Notes under the pieces: model-generated
The model's input: only the letters and a program-made list of their open reading frames with translations
Told to the model about the DNA's origin: nothing
Databases searched by the model: none
Shown: positions 7,572 through 61,283 of the stretch, piece by piece
Numbering within the stretch: position 1 is the stretch's first letter
Layout of the letters: each line of letters begins with the position of its first letter
Position numbers and translations under genes: made by a program
Assembly (NCBI GenBank): GCA_041665405.1
Contig: JBAYIZ010000002.1
Span: forward strand, 7,300-71,299
From: Candidatus Magasanikiibacteriota bacterium
GTDB taxonomy: Bacteria > Patescibacteriota > Patescibacteriia > Magasanikbacterales > GWA2-37-8
Direction of reading: 5' to 3'
Length of the DNA stretch: 64,000 nt

Positions 7572-8945
7572 ATGTTTCCAAAACAGGTATTTAAAGCCTA
7601 TGATATCCGCGGTTTGGTAGAGGGAGAACTCAACGATGATATAGCCTATCGGATTGGACGTTCTTACGGTGTATTTTTGCGTGATTTTTATAAAGATTGG
7701 AATGGTAAAAGTGTAGTGGTAGGCAGAGATATGCGCGCCACCAGCCCGCAATTTGCCAAAGAAGTCACTAGGGGGCTCAATGACGAAGGGTTGAATGTTG
7801 TTGACATAGGTTTGGCTAGCACTCCATCGTTTAATTTTGCCTGTACATTTTACCCTGAGCATGTGGCTGGGATAATGGTGACCGCTTCCCATAATCCAGC
7901 CGAATATAATGGTTTCAAAATGACTTTGGGAGATGGAACACCAGTAGGAGGCAAAAATGGTATGGATAAAATACGGGATGTAGCAGAGAAAATGGACAAC
8001 ACTGTCATTCCCGCGAAAGCGGGAATCCAAGCAGGCATCACAAAAAAGGATGTGGTATCGGATTATTTAAACAAAATACTTTCAATTGTAAAAGTTGAGG
8101 GAATAAAACCATTAAAAATAGTGATAGATGCAGGCAACGGTATGGCCGATGTGACTTTCCCTAGTTTATTAAAAAAATTGCCAGTGCAGGTAGAGTATTT
8201 ATTTTTGGAACCAGACGGTACTTTTCCAAACCATGAGGCCAATCCATTAAAAACTGAAACATTAAAAGATTTGCAAAAAAAAGTTTTGGAAACTGGAGCG
8301 GATTTTGGTTTTGCTTTGGATGGTGATGTCGATCGTTTTGGTTTGGTAGATGAAAAAGGGGAGGTGGTAGAGGCGTCTTTTGTCGGAGCATTGTGTGGTG
8401 TGGAAATTTTGAGTGAGCACCCAGGGGCACACATGCTCTATGATTTGCGATCAAGCAAAATTTTGAAAGAAACATGGGAGGCCAATGGTGCCACCACCGA
8501 TATGTGTCCGGTCGGGCATGCCAATATCAAGAGGATGATGAAAGAACAAAAAGCAGAGTTTGCTAGTGAACTATCTCTGCACATGTATTTTCATGAAATG
8601 AGCGATGTAGAAAGTACAGATCTAGCACTATTATATTTCTTACGATTGTTGTCGCGTACTGGCAAAAAGATGAGTGAATTGGTGTTGCCATTTAAAAAAT
8701 ATTTTCATGCTGGAGAAATCAATTTTGAAGTGAAGGATAAAGAAAAGGTCTTGAACAATTTACGTGTTCAATATGGTGATGCTAAAATTATTGAGTTGGA
8801 CGGGTTGTCTTTTGAGTATCCAACCTGGTGGTTTAATGTGAGAGCAAGTAACACGGAACCGGTATTGAGGTTGAATTTGGAGGCAAATACAAAAGAGGAA
8901 ATGGAAGAAAAATTAGCTGAGGTCAGGCAAATAATCGAAGGGTAA
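7572..8945 (+). CDS. Phosphomannomutase/phosphoglucomutase (alpha-D-phosphohexomutase family)
   Basis: N-terminal KAYDIRG motif, active-site TASHNPAEYNGFK, four-domain length (457 aa). Contains an in-frame copy of the 27-nt hairpin element (VIPAKAGIQ). Confidence 0.85.
   Translation: MFPKQVFKAYDIRGLVEGELNDDIAYRIGRSYGVFLRDFYKDWNGKSVVVGRDMRATSPQFAKEVTRGLNDEGLNVVDIGLASTPSFNFACTFYPEHVAGIMVTASHNPAEYNGFKMTLGDGTPVGGKNGMDKIRDVAEKMDNTVIPAKAGIQAGITKKDVVSDYLNKILSIVKVEGIKPLKIVIDAGNGMADVTFPSLLKKLPVQVEYLFLEPDGTFPNHEANPLKTETLKDLQKKVLETGADFGFALDGDVDRFGLVDEKGEVVEASFVGALCGVEILSEHPGAHMLYDLRSSKILKETWEANGATTDMCPVGHANIKRMMKEQKAEFASELSLHMYFHEMSDVESTDLALLYFLRLLSRTGKKMSELVLPFKKYFHAGEINFEVKDKEKVLNNLRVQYGDAKIIELDGLSFEYPTWWFNVRASNTEPVLRLNLEANTKEEMEEKLAEVRQIIEG
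8003..8029 (+). repeat. Copy A of 27-nt GNRA-hairpin repeat (tgtcattcccgcGAAAgcgggaatcca), in-frame inside the phosphohexomutase CDS
   Basis: 8-bp stem attcccgc/gcgggaat with GAAA loop. Same element at 12688, 28814 and 39931 with compensatory stem changes. Confidence 0.75.
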
Positions 8946-8960
8946 ATTTGTTAAATAAAC

Positions 8961-9066
8961 AAAATACCGCCAATAGTGACTTTTTAGCTTTCCTCACCCC
9001 GCGAGGGGCTCGGGGATGAACCTCGGTTCATAACCCGCTAAAAAGTAACTATTGGCGGTATTTTTT
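8961..9066. repeat. Copy 1 of ~105-nt palindromic element (A-run...T-run outer inverted repeat, conserved core with GCGA-loop hairpin and 'cataacccgct' motif); probable bidirectional terminator / structured RNA between convergent genes
   Basis: Outer stem aaaataccgccaatagt/actattggcggtatttt. Inner stems gactttttagc/gctaaaaagt and ccccGCGAgggg. Related copies at 22245-22356 and 60336-60412 (reverse). Confidence 0.65.
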
Positions 9067-9076
9067 GCTATAAAAC

Positions 9077-11176
9077 TTATTCAATTATAATTCTCGCATC
9101 CAATATTTTGACACCTTGGCCTTTTGGTAATACCAATAATGGATTGATGTCTAGCTCCTTAATATTTGGAAAATCAATTAGCAGTTGAGATAATCGTCCC
9201 AAACAATCAATCAGCGCCTGAGTGTCCATCACAGCTTGTCCGCGTGCACCATCTAAAATCTTTTTAGATTTTAATTTGTTGATCATTTTTTGAGCATCAT
9301 AAGCAGTGAGTGGAGCAAGCCCAAATGTAACATCTTTGAAAATTTCCACATATGTACCACCGAGCCCGACCATGATAGTATTGCCTAATCCTGGATCTTT
9401 TACACTGCCCAAAATCATTTCCACCCCTTTTTCTTTAATCATTTCCATTACCAATATTCCTTCGATTTTCGCCAATGGAAATTGATTTTTTATCTTTTTC
9501 ATCATCTCGGTAAATTTTGTACCGGCATCATTTGGTTCGATGTTGAGCATTACACCACCAGAATCGGTTTTATGTAATATATCTTGAGATATTATTTTTA
9601 ATACGATCGTTTTGCCAATTTTTTGGGCAATTTCTTGGGCGTCTTGTGCGGTTTTGGCGATTTCACTTTGTACTAAAGGAAAACCATAATCGCGTAAAAT
9701 TGGCAGTGCGTCTGCTTCAGGGAAAATAGTTTGTCCGCGAGTTTTGGCTTGCGTAAAATATTTTTCTGCGGCTTTTTTGTTAGTATTTTTGAAATTAAAT
9801 TTTGTTTTGTATTTGTCTTTACGAATATTGGAAAAGTGGGTGAGCGCGTCTAGTGCTTTGGCTGCTTCTTCGGGAAAACTGAAAGTGGAAACACCGCTAG
9901 CGCGTAACGTCTTGATACTTTGTTCAACTAGTTTACCGCCGATAAAACTAGCAATGATTGGTTTTTTACTTTTTTTCTTGGCGCTTATAATGGCTTGGGC
10001 GGTGAGATCAAATTCGGTCATGGATTGTGGTGTCAAAACTACGATTACACTGTCCACATTTTTATCAGCTATCAAAATATCTATGGCCGCTTTGTATCGG
10101 TCGGCTTTGGCATCACCAAGTACATCGATTGGGTTATGAAAATTGGCAAACGCTGGTAAAACTTTTTTTAATTTTTTTTGTGTGGATTCAGAAATTACCG
10201 CCATTTTTAATCCACTCAAAATAACTTGGTCAGTGGTCAAAACTCCAGGGCCACCAGCGTTGGTCACTATAGCCACGCGATCACCTTTGGGTAATTCGTT
10301 GTTGGTAAAGATGTTTAAATATTGAAATAATTCTGAAATCATTTCTACTCGTAGAATTCCAGCTTGTGAAAATAGTCCTTGGTAGGCACTATCATTGCCA
10401 GCCAGCGCGCCAGTATGAGAGGCGCTTGCTGAAGCACCATCACGAGTGCGTCCAGATTTTATGGCAATAATTGGTTTAGGGTTTTTACCATGAGTAAGTT
10501 TTTTGGCGGCGGCGATTAGAGCAGGGGCGTCGGTAAGTTGTTCTACATACATCGCCACTACTTTTGTTTTTTTATCTTTGGCCAAATATTCAAAAAGATC
10601 CGCTTCGGTCATAGTGGTTTTATTCCCCACGCTCACGAATTTAGAAAAACCGATATCTAATTTTTGGGCATAATCCAAAATGGCGGTGCAGAGTGCGCCA
10701 CTTTGAGAAATGAAAGCAATGTTACCCTCAGCCGGCATAATGTTGGCGAACGACGCATTCATTTTATTTTCGGTGTTTATCACGCCCAGACAATTTGGTC
10801 CCACCAAAGTTATATTATTTTTTTGACAAATATTTTTTACCTGATTTTCCAATTCAATATTTTCCACCTCTTTGAATCCGGCAGAAATAATAATCGCGGC
10901 TTTGATTTTTTTCTTGGCCACAGTTTCCAAAACAGCGGGGACGATGGCGCCAGGTACCACGATAATAGCCAGATCAATTTTTTCTGGTATAATCAAAACA
11001 TCTGGATAGCATTTCAATCCATATAGTTCGGTAGTTTTTGGGTTCACTGGGAAAATTCTGCCTTTGTATCCTTGGGTAGTGAGGTTTTTCAAAATATCAT
11101 TGCCAACTTGCCCAACGACAGTAGAGGCGCCGATGACAGCAATAGATTTGGGGTAGAAGATTGAGTTAAGATCCAT
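9077..11176 (-). CDS. Acetate--CoA ligase (ADP-forming) / NDP-forming acyl-CoA synthetase, fused alpha+beta (CoA-binding + succinyl-CoA-ligase-like + ATP-grasp domains)
   Basis: N-terminal CoA-binding Rossmann (SIAVIGAS...GQVG), ligase-CoA domain, C-terminal ATP-grasp. 699-aa fused architecture typical of ADP-forming acetyl-CoA synthetases. Confidence 0.8.
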   Translation of the reverse strand: MDLNSIFYPKSIAVIGASTVVGQVGNDILKNLTTQGYKGRIFPVNPKTTELYGLKCYPDVLIIPEKIDLAIIVVPGAIVPAVLETVAKKKIKAAIIISAGFKEVENIELENQVKNICQKNNITLVGPNCLGVINTENKMNASFANIMPAEGNIAFISQSGALCTAILDYAQKLDIGFSKFVSVGNKTTMTEADLFEYLAKDKKTKVVAMYVEQLTDAPALIAAAKKLTHGKNPKPIIAIKSGRTRDGASASASHTGALAGNDSAYQGLFSQAGILRVEMISELFQYLNIFTNNELPKGDRVAIVTNAGGPGVLTTDQVILSGLKMAVISESTQKKLKKVLPAFANFHNPIDVLGDAKADRYKAAIDILIADKNVDSVIVVLTPQSMTEFDLTAQAIISAKKKSKKPIIASFIGGKLVEQSIKTLRASGVSTFSFPEEAAKALDALTHFSNIRKDKYKTKFNFKNTNKKAAEKYFTQAKTRGQTIFPEADALPILRDYGFPLVQSEIAKTAQDAQEIAQKIGKTIVLKIISQDILHKTDSGGVMLNIEPNDAGTKFTEMMKKIKNQFPLAKIEGILVMEMIKEKGVEMILGSVKDPGLGNTIMVGLGGTYVEIFKDVTFGLAPLTAYDAQKMINKLKSKKILDGARGQAVMDTQALIDCLGRLSQLLIDFPNIKELDINPLLVLPKGQGVKILDARIIIE

Positions 11177-15593: not shown

Positions 15594-16160
15594 TTAGAAC
15601 TTCACCTGCACATTTTGTTTTTCATTTTCCGCGGCCAAGAAAAATTCGTATTTGGTGAATTTCAACAACCCTGCAAACATATTAGTAGGGAAGACCTGAA
15701 TTTGAGTATTGAAGTCACGCACATTGCCATTGTAAAATCGGCGACTAGCTTGGATTTTATTTTCTGTGTCCGAAATTTCATCTTGCAATTGCAAGAAGTT
15801 TTGGCTGGCTTTTAGATCCGGATAATTTTCAGTGACCGCAAATAGTGATTTCAAAGTAGAGGACAAAGCGTTTTCTGCCTGTTCGCGTTGAGCCAAGGTC
15901 GCGCCAGTATTATCATGAGTAGCCATAGCGGCAGTGCGAGCTTCGGTGAGTTTTGTCAAAGTTTCGCGTTCGTGGGTCATATAGCCCTTTACTGTCTCAA
16001 CTAGATTTGGAATCAGGTCATAACGGCGTTTGAGTTGGACATCAATGTCACTAAATGCTTCATCTACGCGGTTTTTACTGCGTACCAAACCGTTGAATAT
16101 GACAATGATCCAAACCAATCCTATTGCCAGAACTGCTAAAATAATATAAAATGGATTCAT
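15594..16160 (-). CDS. lemA: LemA family membrane protein
   Basis: N-terminal TM plus ...RRYDLIPNLVETVKGYMTHERETL... and ...NFLQLQDEISDTENKIQASRRFYNGNVRDFN... signature regions of the LemA family. Confidence 0.8.
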   Translation of the reverse strand: MNPFYIILAVLAIGLVWIIVIFNGLVRSKNRVDEAFSDIDVQLKRRYDLIPNLVETVKGYMTHERETLTKLTEARTAAMATHDNTGATLAQREQAENALSSTLKSLFAVTENYPDLKASQNFLQLQDEISDTENKIQASRRFYNGNVRDFNTQIQVFPTNMFAGLLKFTKYEFFLAAENEKQNVQVKF

Positions 16161-21839: not shown

Positions 21840-22226
21840 ATGTTTGAAAATTCAAAAGATATTTTATATTTAGTAATTTCATTTTGTGTTTTGTGGGTGA
21901 CTTTTTTCTTATGTTGGATGTTTTATTATCTGATGAGATTATTGCGCAACGCCAATCAGATAGTAGAAGAATTTAGAGTGCGATTACAGGCGCTGACCGA
22001 GGCCATAAATTATGTGCGTGGAAAAGTGGAGCATATGTCTGGGCTTTTGACATTGATTACCGAGGGAGCTTCTGGTTTGGTAAAAAAAGTGATTTCCAAA
22101 AAGACAGACGAATGGATGAATGCTGGATCAGACAAATTTAATAATAGTGCGAAGGAAGCGGTAGCTAGGGCGGTCGCTGAAACAGCACAGCAGATGAAGA
22201 AGGCGACTAAAGCAATTAAAAAATAA
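21840..22226 (+). CDS. Hypothetical small membrane protein (N-terminal TM + coiled coil; DUF948/YtxH-like)
   Basis: Hydrophobic N-terminus then Ala/Lys/Glu-rich helical region. No catalytic motifs. Confidence 0.4.
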   Translation: MFENSKDILYLVISFCVLWVTFFLCWMFYYLMRLLRNANQIVEEFRVRLQALTEAINYVRGKVEHMSGLLTLITEGASGLVKKVISKKTDEWMNAGSDKFNNSAKEAVARAVAETAQQMKKATKAIKK

Positions 22227-22244
22227 TATAATAAAATAGGATAA

Positions 22245-22356
22245 AAAATACAGCGACAATAATGACTTTTGAGCTTTCCTCACCTCGCGAGAGGTTCAGG
22301 GAATCGCCTGCGGGCTCATAACCCGCTCAAAAGTAATTATTGTCGCTGTATTTTTT
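22245..22356. repeat. Copy 2 of ~105-nt palindromic element (outer IR aaaatacagcgacaataat/attattgtcgctgtatttt; conserved core)
   Basis: Between convergent genes. The core aligns with 8961-9066 with compensatory changes (ttttTagc/gctAaaaa vs ttttGagc/gctCaaaa; ccCcGCGAgGgg vs ccTcGCGAgAgg). Confidence 0.65.
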
Positions 22357-22360
22357 GATT

Positions 22361-23053
22361 TTATTTTTTTATGTTGTTTTCATGTTCCCAGCGTGTACCG
22401 ATAAATATGGTCAGTGCGAACAACAATGCAAAATGACAGAGTATGGAAGGGAATTGATAATTTAATGCTGGGAAAAGTATCATTAAAATATAGGTAGGGA
22501 AAGCCATCAGGAAAACTCCCAACGGAAACATCAAGTATATTTTTTGTTTTTTCTGGTTAGCTTCTTTGAGATATGCTCGGATGCCGATTAGACAGGCAAT
22601 TAATATAAATGCAAAATAATAAGCAGTGTAGATTCCAAATCGGATTGAGGAAAGAGGTGAACTAACATCAGAAAAAATATTGTGTGCAGTTATAAAGATA
22701 TTGTGGCATTGTCCATTGACTAAAAAGATAGGTGCAGTTGTGGCCATGATGATGTATATGACGGGTATAATATAAAGCCAAATTAAATTTAGTTTTATCT
22801 TGAAATATTTTATTATACTATGTAACCCAATAGCTGGTAGTAGAGTGTAGGAGCAAAAACCGATTCGCATCCACAGGTCAGGATTGGTGGATTTGCAGAA
22901 CATAAATTCGGTGAGTTGATATAATCCTAAAAGAAATAGTACTGCACTAGAATAATAACGAATTCGTGTTTTTGAATATTTTATTGGTAGTATGATTGCT
23001 AGTGTCCATTCTATAATTGCGGTGGTCAAGGAGATGGTCGGATTATAACACAT
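22361..23053 (-). CDS. Hypothetical polytopic membrane protein
   Basis: 230 aa with multiple hydrophobic helices. No recognisable motif. Confidence 0.4.
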   Translation of the reverse strand: MCYNPTISLTTAIIEWTLAIILPIKYSKTRIRYYSSAVLFLLGLYQLTEFMFCKSTNPDLWMRIGFCSYTLLPAIGLHSIIKYFKIKLNLIWLYIIPVIYIIMATTAPIFLVNGQCHNIFITAHNIFSDVSSPLSSIRFGIYTAYYFAFILIACLIGIRAYLKEANQKKQKIYLMFPLGVFLMAFPTYILMILFPALNYQFPSILCHFALLFALTIFIGTRWEHENNIKK

Positions 23054-35462: not shown

Positions 35463-36416
35463 ATGGACAAACTGGATCTTAAAAAGGCGGTCTTGCGCAC
35501 TCTGGCTTATTTTGATTTGAGCGATTATCCGCTGACTGTTACTGAAATAAAAAATTGGTTATATCATTATGAGGTGCAAGATTATTTTGATTTGTTGACA
35601 GTTTTGGAAGAAATGAAAAATCAAAAACAGGTTGAAGAAAAATTTAGTTATTTTTATTTGCCCAACAGAGAAATGGTGGTAGAAAACAGAAGGCAAAATT
35701 TGGTAATTGCCGAATTGAAATTAGGAAAAGCACGACGAGCCGCCAAATTTATTCGTAGTGTTCCATTTTTGAAGGCAATTTTTGTTTGTAATACTGTCGC
35801 GGCGGGCACAGCCGCTGGGAAAAGTGACATTGATTTTTTTATTATTGCTCAAGCCAAGCGTGTTTGGTTGGTAAGATTTTTTACTAACTTGATTTTACGT
35901 TTGTTTAATTTGCGTACATACGGAGACAATAATCGTGATAAGATTTGTTTATCATTTTTTGTAGATGACAATAATCTGAACTTGCAAAAATTGAAAGCTT
36001 GCGAAGAAGATATTCATTTTGCTTATTGGATAACCCAAATGGTGCCGATTTTTGATCTCAATAATTATTGGAAAAGTTTTTTGTCAGCGAATTATTGGTT
36101 AAAAGATTATTTTCCAAATTTGTTAAATAATTTTATTTTTCAGAATTTGGTTGAGCCGGGCAGTTTCGCAATGGTTTGGAAAAAAACCTGGGAAATAATG
36201 TGGTTTGGTGCTTATGGTGATTTGTTGGAAAAGCAGGCGCGTGATTGGCAAATGCTGAAAATGAAATTGAGTACTAAAGAAAAAGCAGGACAGGGAGATA
36301 ATGGCATAGTACTAAATGAAGGGGTAATAAAATTGCATGAAAACGACACTCGTATAGAATGTGCGAAGCAGTGGGAAGAAAAATCAACAGAAATTTTGAA
36401 TATGTTATGCAAATAA
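35463..36416 (+). CDS. Hypothetical nucleotidyltransferase-fold protein
   Basis: ...CNTVAAGTAAGKSDIDFFII... resembles the G[ST]...D.D motif of minimal nucleotidyltransferases. No further assignment. Confidence 0.35.
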   Translation: MDKLDLKKAVLRTLAYFDLSDYPLTVTEIKNWLYHYEVQDYFDLLTVLEEMKNQKQVEEKFSYFYLPNREMVVENRRQNLVIAELKLGKARRAAKFIRSVPFLKAIFVCNTVAAGTAAGKSDIDFFIIAQAKRVWLVRFFTNLILRLFNLRTYGDNNRDKICLSFFVDDNNLNLQKLKACEEDIHFAYWITQMVPIFDLNNYWKSFLSANYWLKDYFPNLLNNFIFQNLVEPGSFAMVWKKTWEIMWFGAYGDLLEKQARDWQMLKMKLSTKEKAGQGDNGIVLNEGVIKLHENDTRIECAKQWEEKSTEILNMLCK

Positions 36417-37690
36417 ATGTTTCAAGAATTAAAGATTTTTTGCTTTTAGTATTATTATTTGTTTTGCCTTGGCAAACTAGGTTGATTTATCAAACTGCAT
36501 ATTTGGGTGAAAATTTTTGGGAGTTCGGGAGTTTGTCTTTATATGGTGTTGAAATTTTATTGGGTGTTACAGTTTTGTTTTTTTTGGTGGACAAAATTAG
36601 AAGTGACTTTCACAGTCTGTTAATAAAACATTTTAACAAAAAACGTCTGGCAATAATATTGGCCAGTATTTTTGGTATATTCCTTTTATATCTATTGACT
36701 AGTGCACATTGTGCCATAACCTGGCAATATTTAAACTGGTTTATATATGGGTTGTGTCTTATTTTTATTACATTGGAAAGCCAGTTAAGTTTAAAAAAAT
36801 TATTATTGGCAGTTTGGGCTGGCGGCTTTTTGCAAGGCGTTTTAGCAATATGGCAATTTTTTAATCAGTATATCCCCGCCAATAAGTGGTTGGGTATGGC
36901 GGTGCAAGATCCTCGCCAATTGGGAGTAGCGGTAGTGGAGTTTGGTGATGAACGTTGGTTGCGAGCGTATGGGAGTTTTGGTTGGCCCAATTCATTGGGT
37001 ATATATCTGGCCGTGGTGTTTTTATTAGGTATAATTTTAATTGAAATCGAGAATATAAAAAAATATCGAATTATGTTGTTGGTAGGGCAGTTGTTTATTA
37101 TTATTGGTCTTTTCTTTTCCTTTGCACGTGGTGCGTGGTTGGCTGGAGTAGTGGGTTTGTGTATTTTTGGTATTAAGAAATATAAAGATAGAATTTTTTG
37201 GCAACAGATTGGTGTTTACGCTGTAACTACTTTGATGTTGTTAATAATTTTTAAACCATTAGTTATTTCGAGGTTTGATTTGCAAAATAGGTTGGAAAAA
37301 AATTCAATTTCTCAACGTATTGATCAAGGTGTAGAGTTTAAAAAAATATTTTATTCAAATTATTTGGTAGGAACAGGGCCCGGTAATTATACCGCTGTTT
37401 TGCACAATCTTTTTCCGCAGTATTTTGCATATGATTTAAAGCCAGTTCATAATATTTATTTATTGTTTGTGGCTGAGTTTGGATTATTTGGATTGTTTTT
37501 GTTAGTTATATTTTTGTTTAGGAATATAAAATTGGTATATTTATATTTTGCGCCACTGGTAGCTCTATTAGTTGCTGGGCTATTTGATCATTGGAGCATG
37601 AGTACATTTACTGGACTAACATTTCTTTGTTTAATGATTGGTTTGTCTGTTAAATATTTCGCCATTGACACAAAAGTATCCCCAGAGTAA
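36359..37690 (+). CDS. O-antigen ligase/polymerase-like (Wzy_C) polytopic membrane protein; true start probably downstream (ATG ~36404, first three nt of ATGTTATGC at 36404-36412)
   Basis: About 10 TM helices with central ...FSFARGAWLAGVVGL... loop motif typical of the O-antigen ligase family. The 5' end overlaps the previous gene by 58 nt. Confidence 0.55.
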   Translation: MCEAVGRKINRNFEYVMQINVSRIKDFLLLVLLFVLPWQTRLIYQTAYLGENFWEFGSLSLYGVEILLGVTVLFFLVDKIRSDFHSLLIKHFNKKRLAIILASIFGIFLLYLLTSAHCAITWQYLNWFIYGLCLIFITLESQLSLKKLLLAVWAGGFLQGVLAIWQFFNQYIPANKWLGMAVQDPRQLGVAVVEFGDERWLRAYGSFGWPNSLGIYLAVVFLLGIILIEIENIKKYRIMLLVGQLFIIIGLFFSFARGAWLAGVVGLCIFGIKKYKDRIFWQQIGVYAVTTLMLLIIFKPLVISRFDLQNRLEKNSISQRIDQGVEFKKIFYSNYLVGTGPGNYTAVLHNLFPQYFAYDLKPVHNIYLLFVAEFGLFGLFLLVIFLFRNIKLVYLYFAPLVALLVAGLFDHWSMSTFTGLTFLCLMIGLSVKYFAIDTKVSPE

Positions 37691-37707
37691 ACTTTATAGG
37701 CTAAGAA

Positions 37708-37823
37708 GCCAGAGTTGGGGACAGACTCTCTCGCACGCCATAGTTCCGAGCTAGACCATAGACAGGCATAGTTCGGACAATAAGTGGACGGCGAGCAAAG
37801 TTCGTTCCCAACTCTGGTTTTTT
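37708..37823 (+). other. GC-rich ~115-nt extended hairpin (11-15-bp outer stem ccagagttggg/cccaactctgg + T6) downstream of ligase-like gene; long terminator or small structured RNA
   Basis: Inverted repeat seen directly. Internal imperfect pairing (ctctcgc/gcgag...). Local GC ~50% versus ~33% background. Confidence 0.4.
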
Positions 37824-37969
37824 ATTATTTTGGCTAAAAAATGATGTGGATATTTGGAAGATGATGGCATCTTGACAAAATCATAAAATTGGTTAAAATG
37901 GTATAGTAATTATCACTCAAATCTAGCGAGTGATAAATCAATAAGTTAATTAATCTAATATATTTATAT

Positions 37970-38275: not shown

Positions 38276-38282
38276 TTAATAA

Positions 38283-39926
<1,644 letters not shown>

Positions 39927-59719: not shown

Positions 59720-59720
59720 T

Positions 59721-60323
59721 ATGCAAATAATGTCTGAATGCAATTTAGCAAAAATTGTGATTGAAATTTTGTCTGGTAAAGTAATGGTTTTTCCGACGGA
59801 AACTTCTTATGCGATAGGGTGTGATGCTACCAATCAAGCGGCGGTGGATCGTATTTTTGATATCAAAGGACGAGAAGGGAACAAACCATTATTGATAGTA
59901 GTAGATAGCACAGAAACAGCCAAAAAATATTTACATTGGAGTGAAAATTTACAAAAATTGGCGGATAAATATTGGCCCGGGGCGGTGACAGTAGTAGGGG
60001 AATCTATTGAGGATCATTTGGCCAAAGGGGTAATCAAACGCGATGGTACTGTTGGTCTGCGAGTATCTGCCTATCCATTATTAAAATCCATTACCGAAAA
60101 AATTGGCCGACCACTGGTGGCTACTTCAGCCAACATTGCTGGTGAAGAAAATCTGTATGATGCCAAAAAAATTATCGAAGTTTTTTTCAAACAAAAAAAT
60201 CAACCAGACATAATTTTAGATTACGGAATGTTACCAACAAAACCACCGACAACAGTAGTTAGTGTCATCGGTGATGATATAAAAATATTAAGACAGGGCG
60301 AGTTATTAATTAACCTGAACTAG
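59721..60323 (+). CDS. tsaC: L-threonylcarbamoyladenylate synthase (YrdC/Sua5 family)
   Basis: ...VMVFPTETSYAIGCDATNQAAVDRIFDIKGR...KPLLIVV... YrdC domain signatures. 200 aa. Confidence 0.85.
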   Translation: MQIMSECNLAKIVIEILSGKVMVFPTETSYAIGCDATNQAAVDRIFDIKGREGNKPLLIVVDSTETAKKYLHWSENLQKLADKYWPGAVTVVGESIEDHLAKGVIKRDGTVGLRVSAYPLLKSITEKIGRPLVATSANIAGEENLYDAKKIIEVFFKQKNQPDIILDYGMLPTKPPTTVVSVIGDDIKILRQGELLINLN

Positions 60324-60335
60324 ATATTTGACAGG

Positions 60336-60412
60336 TTGTATTGAGCGGGTTATGCGCCGAGGCGCATCCTTTTGCCCTCGCGGGCAAAAAAAGCGAAATA
60401 CAATCTGACAAA
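60336..60412 (-). repeat. Copy 3 (reverse orientation, more divergent) of the ~100-nt palindromic element; overlaps the annotated TTG start region of ksgA
   Basis: Reverse complement contains gcccGCGAgggc hairpin, atgcgcc-tc-ggcgcat stem (compensatory to atgaacc-tc-ggttcat in copy 1) and cataacccgctc motif. Confidence 0.55.
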
Positions 60413-61283
60413 TATCGTCACTGACTTTATGAACGAAAAACTTTTTAACATAGACTATCTCAAACATCTTTGTAATAAGTTTGGTTTGCGCCCATCCAAG
60501 GAATACGGTCAAAATTATTTGATCAATCCAGAAGTGATAGACACGATGATAGCAGTAAGTGGCGTTAATAAAAAAGACACAGTGGTCGAGGTTGGTCCTG
60601 GTTTTGGTATTCTCACGTTGGATCTCGCGGCCAAAGTAAAAAAGTTATTAGCTTTTGAAATTGAAATAAAATTAAAACCATATTGGGAGGAAATTAGTAC
60701 GCGTTTGTCCCAGAGTAAAGAAAATAATTTTGAAATTATTTGGGGCAATGTATTGCGTACTGATCCAGCCATTTTTCCCAAAAGCTATAAAGTGGTAGCC
60801 AATTTACCATATCAAATCACCTCGCCGGTATTAAAATTTTTTCTCGAAGATCTGGAAAACAAACCAAAAGAGATGACCTTGATGGTGCAAAAAGAAGTTG
60901 CTCAAAGAATCTGTGCTAAACCAGGGGAGATGTCGGTATTGGGTCTGTCGGTGCAATATTTTGGTCAGGCAGAAATCGTGGGTGAAGTAAAAAATAATAA
61001 TTTTTGGCCAGTACCTCAGGTAGATTCGGCGATAATCAAAATAATTTTGTCCAAACGCGCTACCATCAGAATGGAAGATCAAGCATTTTTCAAATTAGTC
61101 AAAATCGGCTTCGCTCAAAAACGAAAATTATTAATAAAAAACATTTTGCCAACAATAGGCAAGGAACATAAAGAAAAATTCCTCTCAGAGCTGAAAAAAA
61201 TGGGTTTTACTGAGACGGTACGCGCCCAAGAACTCAGTGTCGCCAACTGGCAACAACTAGTGAAGATATCCACATTACTCTAA
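60372..61283 (+). CDS. rsmA: 16S rRNA (adenine1518/1519-N6)-dimethyltransferase RsmA/KsgA; track start is TTG at 60372, ATG at 60429 is the more likely start
   Basis: ...YGQNYLINPEVID...VVEVGPGFGILTLDLA...NLPYQITSPVL... canonical KsgA motifs. Confidence 0.85.
   Translation: MPSRAKKAKYNLTNIVTDFMNEKLFNIDYLKHLCNKFGLRPSKEYGQNYLINPEVIDTMIAVSGVNKKDTVVEVGPGFGILTLDLAAKVKKLLAFEIEIKLKPYWEEISTRLSQSKENNFEIIWGNVLRTDPAIFPKSYKVVANLPYQITSPVLKFFLEDLENKPKEMTLMVQKEVAQRICAKPGEMSVLGLSVQYFGQAEIVGEVKNNNFWPVPQVDSAIIKIILSKRATIRMEDQAFFKLVKIGFAQKRKLLIKNILPTIGKEHKEKFLSELKKMGFTETVRAQELSVANWQQLVKISTLL

Follow-up and report, generated by a model that had tools for sequence, protein, structure and literature searches.

Short palindromic repeats dispersed between genes are familiar from several bacterial lineages. 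The repetitive extragenic palindromic (REP) sequences and bacterial interspersed mosaic elements (BIMEs) of Enterobacteria and Pseudomonas, including the REPINs, are short and abundant extragenic palindromes that often lie after genes or between convergent genes, form hairpins in the mRNA, persist at orthologous sites and are homogenised within a genome; their stem with its 5′ GTAG is conserved while the tip varies, and they are tied to a RAYT transposase gene. The Rickettsia palindromic elements (RPEs) are repeats of about 100–150 bp; the genome that carries them is small and host-dependent, and they can be accommodated in frame within essential genes (PMC10969869). SPRITEs are terminator-like repeats, and Correia elements invert and undergo RNase III cleavage (PMC10969869). 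Here, we describe palindromes of about 95–115 nt with a conserved tip on a variable stem that occur in three copies in a 64,000-nt stretch of Candidatus Magasanikiibacteriota bacterium (GCA_041665405.1, contig JBAYIZ010000002.1, positions 7,300–71,299 of the forward strand; hereafter “the window”, to which all positions refer unless a locus is named) and in many more in related metagenome-assembled genomes (MAGs). The family is best read as a previously undescribed interspersed palindromic repeat of Magasanikbacteria; that it is a lineage-specific repeat family of these Patescibacteria (Candidate Phyla Radiation, CPR) doubling as a terminator is given a probability of roughly 0.65.

The three window copies have a core of 51–56 nt in common that reads GC-UUU-(P2 hairpin, GCGA loop)-GG-AUG..(P3 hairpin)..CAU-AA-CC-C-GC, with the 11-mer CATAACCCGCT present at exactly three places of the window. 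A scan of one genome per species with the pattern GCTTT-N5-10-CGCGAG-N12-40-CATAACCCGCT yielded at least 105 loci; in total, the core occurs at least 110 times in about 17 Magasanikbacteria-type MAGs, two of which contain at least 16–17 copies each. Loci of other MAGs were retrieved with about 8 kb around each copy (L-numbers in the following). A covariance model built from 104 copies assigned 87.8, 70.4 and 58.2 bits to window copies 3, 1 and 2, respectively (E-values 1e-27 to 3e-17); the next-best match in the window reached 13.6 bits, so there are exactly three copies. The earlier note on this DNA had claimed three copies with a common core, which is borne out by these results, and had proposed a model-based scan of relatives, which indeed recovered many further copies at 56–97 bits. 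As in MITEs (miniature transposable elements with inverted repeats), the copies are thus many, short, non-coding and dispersed (three in the 64-kb window and 111 model matches in 732 kb of retrieved loci).

Among the listed loci, all belonged to MAGs of the Magasanikbacteria lineage or so labelled, except for five chance matches in unrelated bacteria; the MAG titles name Candidatus Magasanikbacteria/Magasanikiibacteriota, Patescibacteria or “uncultured Gammaproteobacteria”. The last label is carried by the MAGs CAYZHG, CAZXEV, CAZHYJ, CAZXFG, CAZBWU, CAYXJO and CAYHBZ (L007–L009, L018–L020, L022, L024 and others). Judged from sequence, it looks wrong and these MAGs appear to be of the same lineage as Magasanikbacteria, because the flanks of several of them (e.g. 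CAYZHG and CAZXEV) are orthologous to Magasanikbacteria loci with up to 89% nucleotide identity. The TsaC protein encoded in the window has its named relatives in the same group; the nearest homolog is only 71% identical, and therefore no recent insertion could be examined. The family pattern gave no match in viral contigs, Rfam 15, with its hammerhead, twister, pistol, hatchet, Y RNA, 6S and SRP families, no match in the whole window at gathering thresholds, and a tRNA/tmRNA scan no hit. In E-value mode (window, copies 1 and 3), Rfam returned only generic hairpins far below threshold, miRNA precursors and CRISPR-DR57 (21 versus 39 bits), i.e. the comparison suggested by the earlier note assigned no family, and literature searches revealed no description of this element.

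The tip is a conserved, covarying three-way-junction fold. From the outside inwards, each copy consists of locus-specific arms (median 26 nt, quartiles 21–31, counted outward from the clamp), a mismatch or small internal loop at a distance of about 8–10 bp from the tip, an inner stem that is semi-conserved and rich in A/U (e.g. ACUUUUU/AAAAGU), and a 2×2 UC/UC internal loop next to a GC/GC clamp, this loop being exceptionally paired in window copies 1 and 2. The clamp is followed by UUU, by P2 (8 bp, capped by GCGA) and, directly after P2, by P3, in which GG and AUG with three to five variable pairs lead up to a loop and the complementary strand runs out in CAU before an AA bulge and CC; a single C then returns to the clamp. 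Two subtypes are distinguished by lower P2, which reads UUUN.../...NAAA in type A and CC-UC-.../...-UC-GG, and thus contains a second UC/UC loop, in type B. Of 111 copies, 110 have GCGA as the P2 loop; the P3 loops include several kinds (CUCG 29, UCG 14, CUUG 12, UUCG 11, UGCG 6, UGUG 6). Across 104 distinct copies, 92.9% of the cells were pairing versus 78.3% in shuffled alignments, double-sided changes numbered 358 versus 87, and the covariation score was 0.395 as compared to 0.127 after shuffling and at most 0.155 with the partners slid. Copies found by the model only revealed compensatory changes at pairs frozen by the search pattern and otherwise invariant, namely AUG/CAU to ACG/CGU or UGG/CCA, GG/CCC to GGG/CCCC and the loop-closing C-G to U-A. 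The compensatory changes noticed in the window copies alone (T-A/G-C beside the closing GC, C-G/T-A in the hairpin with the GCGA loop and, for the second hairpin, AA/TT versus CG/CG) are real, and the larger alignment supports the fold beyond the shuffles. With the strand bearing the GCGA loop designated “element +”, element − has tandem G-A pairs in place of the UC/UC loops and U-G pairs in place of the C-A mismatches found in type B and in the arms, and hairpins folded from the flanks only were more stable on element − in 74 versus 24 copies, regardless of gene context. The evidence for the acting strand thus conflicts: the mismatch patterns favor element −, whereas the tetraloops favor element +.

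While the tips follow the genomes, the arms follow the loci. The subtype counts per MAG were 16A/1B, 16A/1B, 1A/9B, 0A/6B, 7A/0B and 6A/0B, and orthologous copies carried the core type of their own genome; in a rank test, the core of an ortholog was no closer than that of a random copy of the same genome (mean rank fraction 0.43, with 0.5 denoting no locus signal). Orthologous copies have related arms, in which the differences are compensated. L064 and L079 represent one locus with nearly identical arms, different core type and opposite orientation to the flanking genes; between L005 and L090, a single compensated pair distinguishes the arms, whereas P2 differs at three of four variable pairs. 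Inner stems are specific to the genome. At its outer ends, the palindrome varies from copy to copy, with a partial exception in MAG CAZHYJ, where the arms of different copies can still be aligned (GGATTT.TGGGTTTGATAATTTTTTC and its mirror); the inner 8–10 bp are shared within a genome. The earlier description of the outer stems as completely different in each copy is accordingly correct for their outer parts but does not hold for the inner 8–10 bp (ACTTTTTN/NAAAAGTAA). Taken together, the data indicate that the whole palindrome is the copied unit. They further indicate that the arms evolve fast under a constraint on pairing only, or by palindrome correction, and that the tips stay constant and undergo exchange or homogenisation among the copies of one genome. 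The variability of the outer helix is best accounted for if the arms of such a repeat change quickly and with compensation.

Apart from three, the copies lie between genes. With “>” for a neighbouring gene on the strand of the core and “<” for one on the opposite strand, the contexts were >> in 31, >< in 30, << in 17 and <> in 10 copies; orientation relative to GC skew showed a weak bias (54 versus 37). In the window itself, the GC skew of positions 16000–64000 is uniformly and strongly positive (0.14–0.27 in 4-kb windows) and most long open reading frames (ORFs) are on the + strand, which suggests that the window lies on one replichore with + as the leading strand.

Comparisons between species with flanks of 65–89% identity revealed sites that are filled in some MAGs and empty in others. 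The site upstream of tsaC holds a copy in L075, L028 and, inverted, in L006, each with unrelated arms; it is empty in the window (59720), L084 and L087, where the spacer amounts to 1–9 nt. A copy separates the glutamate dehydrogenase and fpg genes in L085, whereas these two genes directly adjoin each other in the window (24402) and in L034; another is located between groES and groEL in L075, with none in the window (38276–38290) or L006. The ortholog site of copy 2 carries the element in L034 and L089 and a plain bidirectional terminator without core in L085. Positions 59720, 24402, 38276–38290 and 31575 of the window are such empty sites, at which the genes abut or nearly abut and other MAGs carry a copy; these sites may be insertion hot spots. 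Three filled/empty sites are found in the tsaC–ksgA region. The copies are moreover complete: in 796 kb, 108 half-motifs were located inside complete copies and only 4–5 single-motif matches outside, most of which look like chance; two of these belong to complete variant copies missed by the pattern and one is an apparent 3′-end fragment. This fragment (TTTTTTAACCCGCTCGGAAAATA, L022:4400–4440), which resembles the 3′ end of the element, follows a complete copy at a distance of 46 nt downstream and could be what is left of a second, decayed one. Half or split elements were not found in the 796 kb. In consequence, the earlier characterization as a structured RNA rather than a MITE was right with regard to the conserved covarying fold, but the family behaves as an interspersed repeat that is gained and lost.

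Copy 1 (8961–9066, +) is composed of A-run, 5′ arm, core, 3′ arm and T-run. Its core (8987–9039), a type B junction, consists of GC, UUU, P2 (CCUC-A-CCCC GCGA GGGG-CUC-GGGG) and P3 (AUGAAC CUCG GUUCAU with the AA bulge), followed by CCC-GC; it is positioned between the convergent stops of a phosphoglucomutase-family gene (+, ending at 8945) and an ADP-forming acyl-CoA synthetase-like gene (−, ending at 9077). Copy 2 (22243–22356, +; type B core 22273–22327 with the rarer P3 variant AAUCGCC UGCG GGCUCAU) likewise has both runs and is located between convergent hypothetical genes (+, ending at 22226; −, ending at 22361), neither of which matched Pfam; the element is identical in three other metagenome contigs that encode the adjoining protein. 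As stated in the earlier note, two copies thus lie between convergent genes, and both occupy nearly the entire spacer of their ORF pair. The arms of copies 1 and 2 (28 and 32 nt) are 96–97% complementary, and the folding energies are −56.7 kcal/mol (z −9.6) and −56.5 kcal/mol (z −10.7), respectively, relative to shuffled sequence. Copy 3 (60323–60416, −) has a type A core (60344–60394; P2 UUUUGCCC GCGA GGGCAAAA, P3 AUGCGC CUCG GCGCAU) on arms (60323–60343/60395–60416) with two mismatches and no runs. The core is antisense to both flanking + genes, tsaC (Sua5/YrdC, 59721–60323) and ksgA/rsmA (ATG at 60429), and the hairpin folds at −36.4 kcal/mol on the transcribed window + strand and at −31.9 kcal/mol on the other; site and orientation are kept in three other MAGs (L075, L084, L087). 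The proposed overlap of copy 3 with the 5′ end of ksgA was an error: the ORF list opens ksgA at TTG 60372, whereas the conserved start is the in-frame ATG 60429 (MNEKLF..., matching the orthologs), and the hairpin ends at 60416, 12 nt upstream of it. With the TTG situated inside the hairpin, gene callers could over-extend ksgA into the repeat (60372–60428).

Bounding A- and T-runs, which had been ascribed to every copy, are present in copies 1 and 2 and absent from copy 3; correspondingly, a G+C-rich hairpin followed by a U-tract at the gene 3′ end is found on both strands for copies 1 and 2 but not for copy 3. In the family, both runs occur in 28 of 31 convergent, 22 of 33 >>, 7 of 21 << and 2 of 11 divergent contexts, as called by a simple run count, the calling of arm ends and runs from minimum-free-energy folds being unreliable in A+T-rich flanks. 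Because A- and T-runs prevail in convergent contexts, copies 1 and 2 are best read as putative bidirectional intrinsic terminators of their gene pairs with the repeat tip at the apex. The earlier idea of bidirectional termination is thereby supported in its layout, as seen in the sequence alone. Another long hairpin of the window (37702–37824, +) has a different interior of about 80 nt and a T-run, is single-copy and is located downstream of a Wzy_C/O-antigen-ligase-like gene (36359–37690) and upstream of groES. It is conserved at the ortholog site in L075 (871–1009, 88% identity) and L006 (1–90, 82%), had no Rfam match, and could be either an independent structured RNA or a terminator of elaborate build.

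At one locus among about 110 copies, the element resides inside a gene: ksgA of L056 and L071 reads through it in frame (...SCSLFSRASAKGCDCGRITRSQE...), with 36–42 extra residues compared to the window KsgA between two conserved blocks. A peptide search for other in-frame copies with the three open frames concatenated scored nothing, the query being too short for 5.8 billion sequences. The same MAGs contain a second repeat family (TGTCATTCTGAGC...GAAGAATC) with 17 matches in the retrieved loci and none in the window; its loci include L056:3799–4944 (ksgA), L044:4332, L085:4273, L028 and L058. Two of its copies are in frame within an insert of about 70 residues in the L056 KsgA (...HVCHSEPCLPTGRQSEESP...CHSERSPADWRGG...), and those at L044:4332 and L085:4273 enclose ACCCGCTT(T)CGCGAGTATAAA, a sequence reminiscent of motifs in the core of the present family. 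Furthermore, the TsaC homologs of Magasanikbacteria (P0057, P0059, P0061, P0075, P0103) are 20–60 residues longer than that of the window owing to low-complexity inserts at one surface position (e.g. ...SLRAKRSNLPVMAIGSESRGIATSPDANRAPRNDT...). These inserts look like translated repeat elements of other families, and in-frame repeat insertions may be common in this lineage.

Compared with the described systems, the family resembles REP/BIME in abundance, extragenic location after genes or between convergent genes, mRNA hairpins, persistence at orthologous sites and homogenisation within a genome. In contrast to REPs, it is the tip that is conserved and the stem that varies: stems are not conserved between copies, ends of the form GTA(G/A)...(C/T)TAC are present in only a few of them, and no RAYT gene was found within the roughly 8 kb around each copy. 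It shares with the RPEs the approximate size, the palindromic nature, the small host-dependent genome and in-frame residence in an essential gene (ksgA of L056 and L071); the RPEs, however, are conserved over their full length, dozens of them are inside genes, and there is no sequence relationship between the two. SPRITE and Correia elements are likewise interspersed and their transcripts form stable hairpins resembling or acting as terminators, but those have defined terminal inverted repeats with target duplications, or modular boxes, are conserved throughout, and none has a covarying three-way-junction tip on locus-specific arms. Situated between convergent genes and having an A-run, a stem with a G+C-rich base and a T-run, copies 1 and 2 are organized like ordinary bidirectional terminators, from which they differ in the length of the hairpin (about 100 versus about 25–40 nt) and in the conserved apex insert of 51–56 nt; about 40% of the family members have no U-tract at all. 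Interspersed palindromic repeats in general are therefore nothing unfamiliar, and what is new is the layout of conserved tip and variable stem and the lineage family itself.

If the family is a lineage-specific interspersed repeat that doubles as a terminator, the palindrome would be copied to new, mostly intergenic sites by some enzyme, by recombination or by replication template switching; the tips would be homogenised or exchanged among the copies of one genome, and the arms would drift fast while remaining paired. In the neighbouring mRNAs, the long hairpin would, wherever a U-tract adjoins it, provide the stem of a Rho-independent terminator, in both directions in convergent pairs; copy 3 and its orthologs, which lack a U-tract and are part of a co-directional gene string, might act as an intra-operon 3′-end or stability hairpin. 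The very stable tip with its GNRA- and UNCG-type loops would allow the arms to close in spite of the length of the insert. That these hairpins terminate transcription, are cut by RNase III or stabilise mRNA is inferred from their anatomy and from the precedents of SPRITE, Correia and REP elements (PMC10969869).

Several observations weigh against this reading. The function in termination is deduced from sequence features only. Every filled/empty pair is interspecies and no recent insertion was seen, so that loss is inseparable from gain. There was no clear target-site duplication or terminal inverted repeat among the copies (TC...TC flanks 11 of 104 copies versus about five expected by chance, and the ends are undefined without a recent insertion). 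Crude motif scans detected no transposase or parent element in the roughly 8 kb around each copy, no RAYT-like ORF in the retrieved loci and no Y1/HUH transposase motif (HUH...Y) in 796 kb. Directly 5′ of the palindrome, 53 of 104 copies have a C (background 0.20, p about 2e-12), while the mirrored 3′ G is present in only 14 copies, an asymmetry that follows the orientation of the core; this C may reflect a target preference or be part of the element. Core and upstream gene point the same way in 68 copies as against 28, which is non-random. Finally, the unpaired core nucleotides are invariant even between orthologs of different species, and the P2 and P3 loops are stable tetraloops of RNA type (GCGA; CUCG, UUCG, CUUG, UGCG), which together argues for selection on an RNA, beyond selfish spread.

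These last features would be expected if the element were a functional cis-acting RNA module, namely a tag recognized by a protein or RNase at mRNA 3′ ends and operon junctions that serves as a punctuation, processing or stability signal, with spread and homogenisation as by-products of selection to match a single trans-acting partner. Besides the invariant unpaired nucleotides, the stems that covary even between orthologs and the GNRA- and UNCG-type loops, such a function is consistent with the bias towards gene 3′ ends (30 convergent versus 10 divergent copies, in addition to the co-orientation with upstream genes), and the genome-wide switching between subtypes A and B would fit partner co-evolution. 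RNase III can act on helices of 20–30 bp, and the arms are long enough for this enzyme. Yet about 30% of the copies, including the conserved copy 3, are antisense to local transcription, orthologous sites can be empty and the copies thus individually dispensable, one copy is translated inside ksgA, the mismatch patterns favor the strand opposite the loops, and no partner was identified; we consider this explanation unlikely, if worth serious attention. Related to it is the proposal, to which we give distinctly low credence, that the three-way junction is an active module, i.e. either an RNA or single-stranded DNA cassette copied into hairpin tips by a dedicated enzyme or a CPR-specific RNA tag that is read by a protein or RNase and punctuates polycistronic transcripts. 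The invariant unpaired bases with the GCGA loop, the UC/UC (GA/GA) loops, the subtype switching and the 5′-junction C are pointers to such a specific role of the tip; if true, it would represent a new kind of element or system, beyond another palindromic repeat.

A mobile unit smaller than the palindrome is conceivable as well: only the tip of about 75 nt (core plus inner 8–10 bp) would home into the apices of resident terminators, either as a single-stranded DNA element moved by an HUH-type enzyme (IS200/IS605, RAYT-like) or in the manner of IS1397, which targets REP loops. The pair L064/L079, with the same arms and a core differing in type and orientation, is in line with this assumption, as are cores that do not track loci, the genome-specific inner stem, the core-less terminator at the copy 2 ortholog site in L085, the conserved mismatch or 2×2 loop where shared sequence passes into locus-specific arms, and the orientation-linked C directly 5′ of the palindrome. 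However, empty sites with spacers of 1 nt are devoid of arms too, the relatedness of the CAZHYJ arms implies that the whole palindrome was copied, the orientation relative to GC skew is only weakly biased, the crude scan of the 796 kb revealed no HUH/Y1 gene, and half elements were not found, which makes a homing tip very doubtful. Hardly credible is the interpretation as small RNA genes with transcription of their own, as a new self-cleaving ribozyme or as a retro-element resembling short interspersed nuclear elements, in which the outer helix would be a freely covarying P1: the compact three-way junction with conserved junction nucleotides, the failure to match known families and the tandem UC/UC, which on the other strand is tandem GA/GA and thus a common RNA motif, would be compatible with it, but the flanks are locus-specific with no conserved promoter-like sequence, both orientations occur, one copy is in frame within a coding sequence, the junction strands (UUU/none/C) are unlike the cores of hammerhead, twister and other Rfam ribozymes, and no reverse transcriptase was seen nearby. 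The readings as retron, diversity-generating retroelement, attC site, group II intron, hammerhead, K-turn or TIGR array were dropped because there is no adjacent reverse transcriptase or integrase, the junction anatomy is wrong and the copies are dispersed, not tandem.

The genomes of Patescibacteria measure about 1 Mb, and the usual description of them is that they contain little mobile DNA and few known regulatory RNAs. An interspersed repeat family which, with one copy per 20–45 kb, supplies many putative terminators and is tolerated within an essential rRNA methyltransferase would be a previously undescribed genome-shaping force in these organisms. The covariance model of the family can be used for the annotation of MAGs and flags intergenic hairpins that may be misread as ORF starts, as in the case of the ksgA TTG; in addition, the repeat family may be of use in marking the lineage. 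The layout of conserved tip and variable stem and the concerted evolution of the tips raise the question of what copies or homogenises a structured cassette of 55 nt in cells with minimal recombination machinery.

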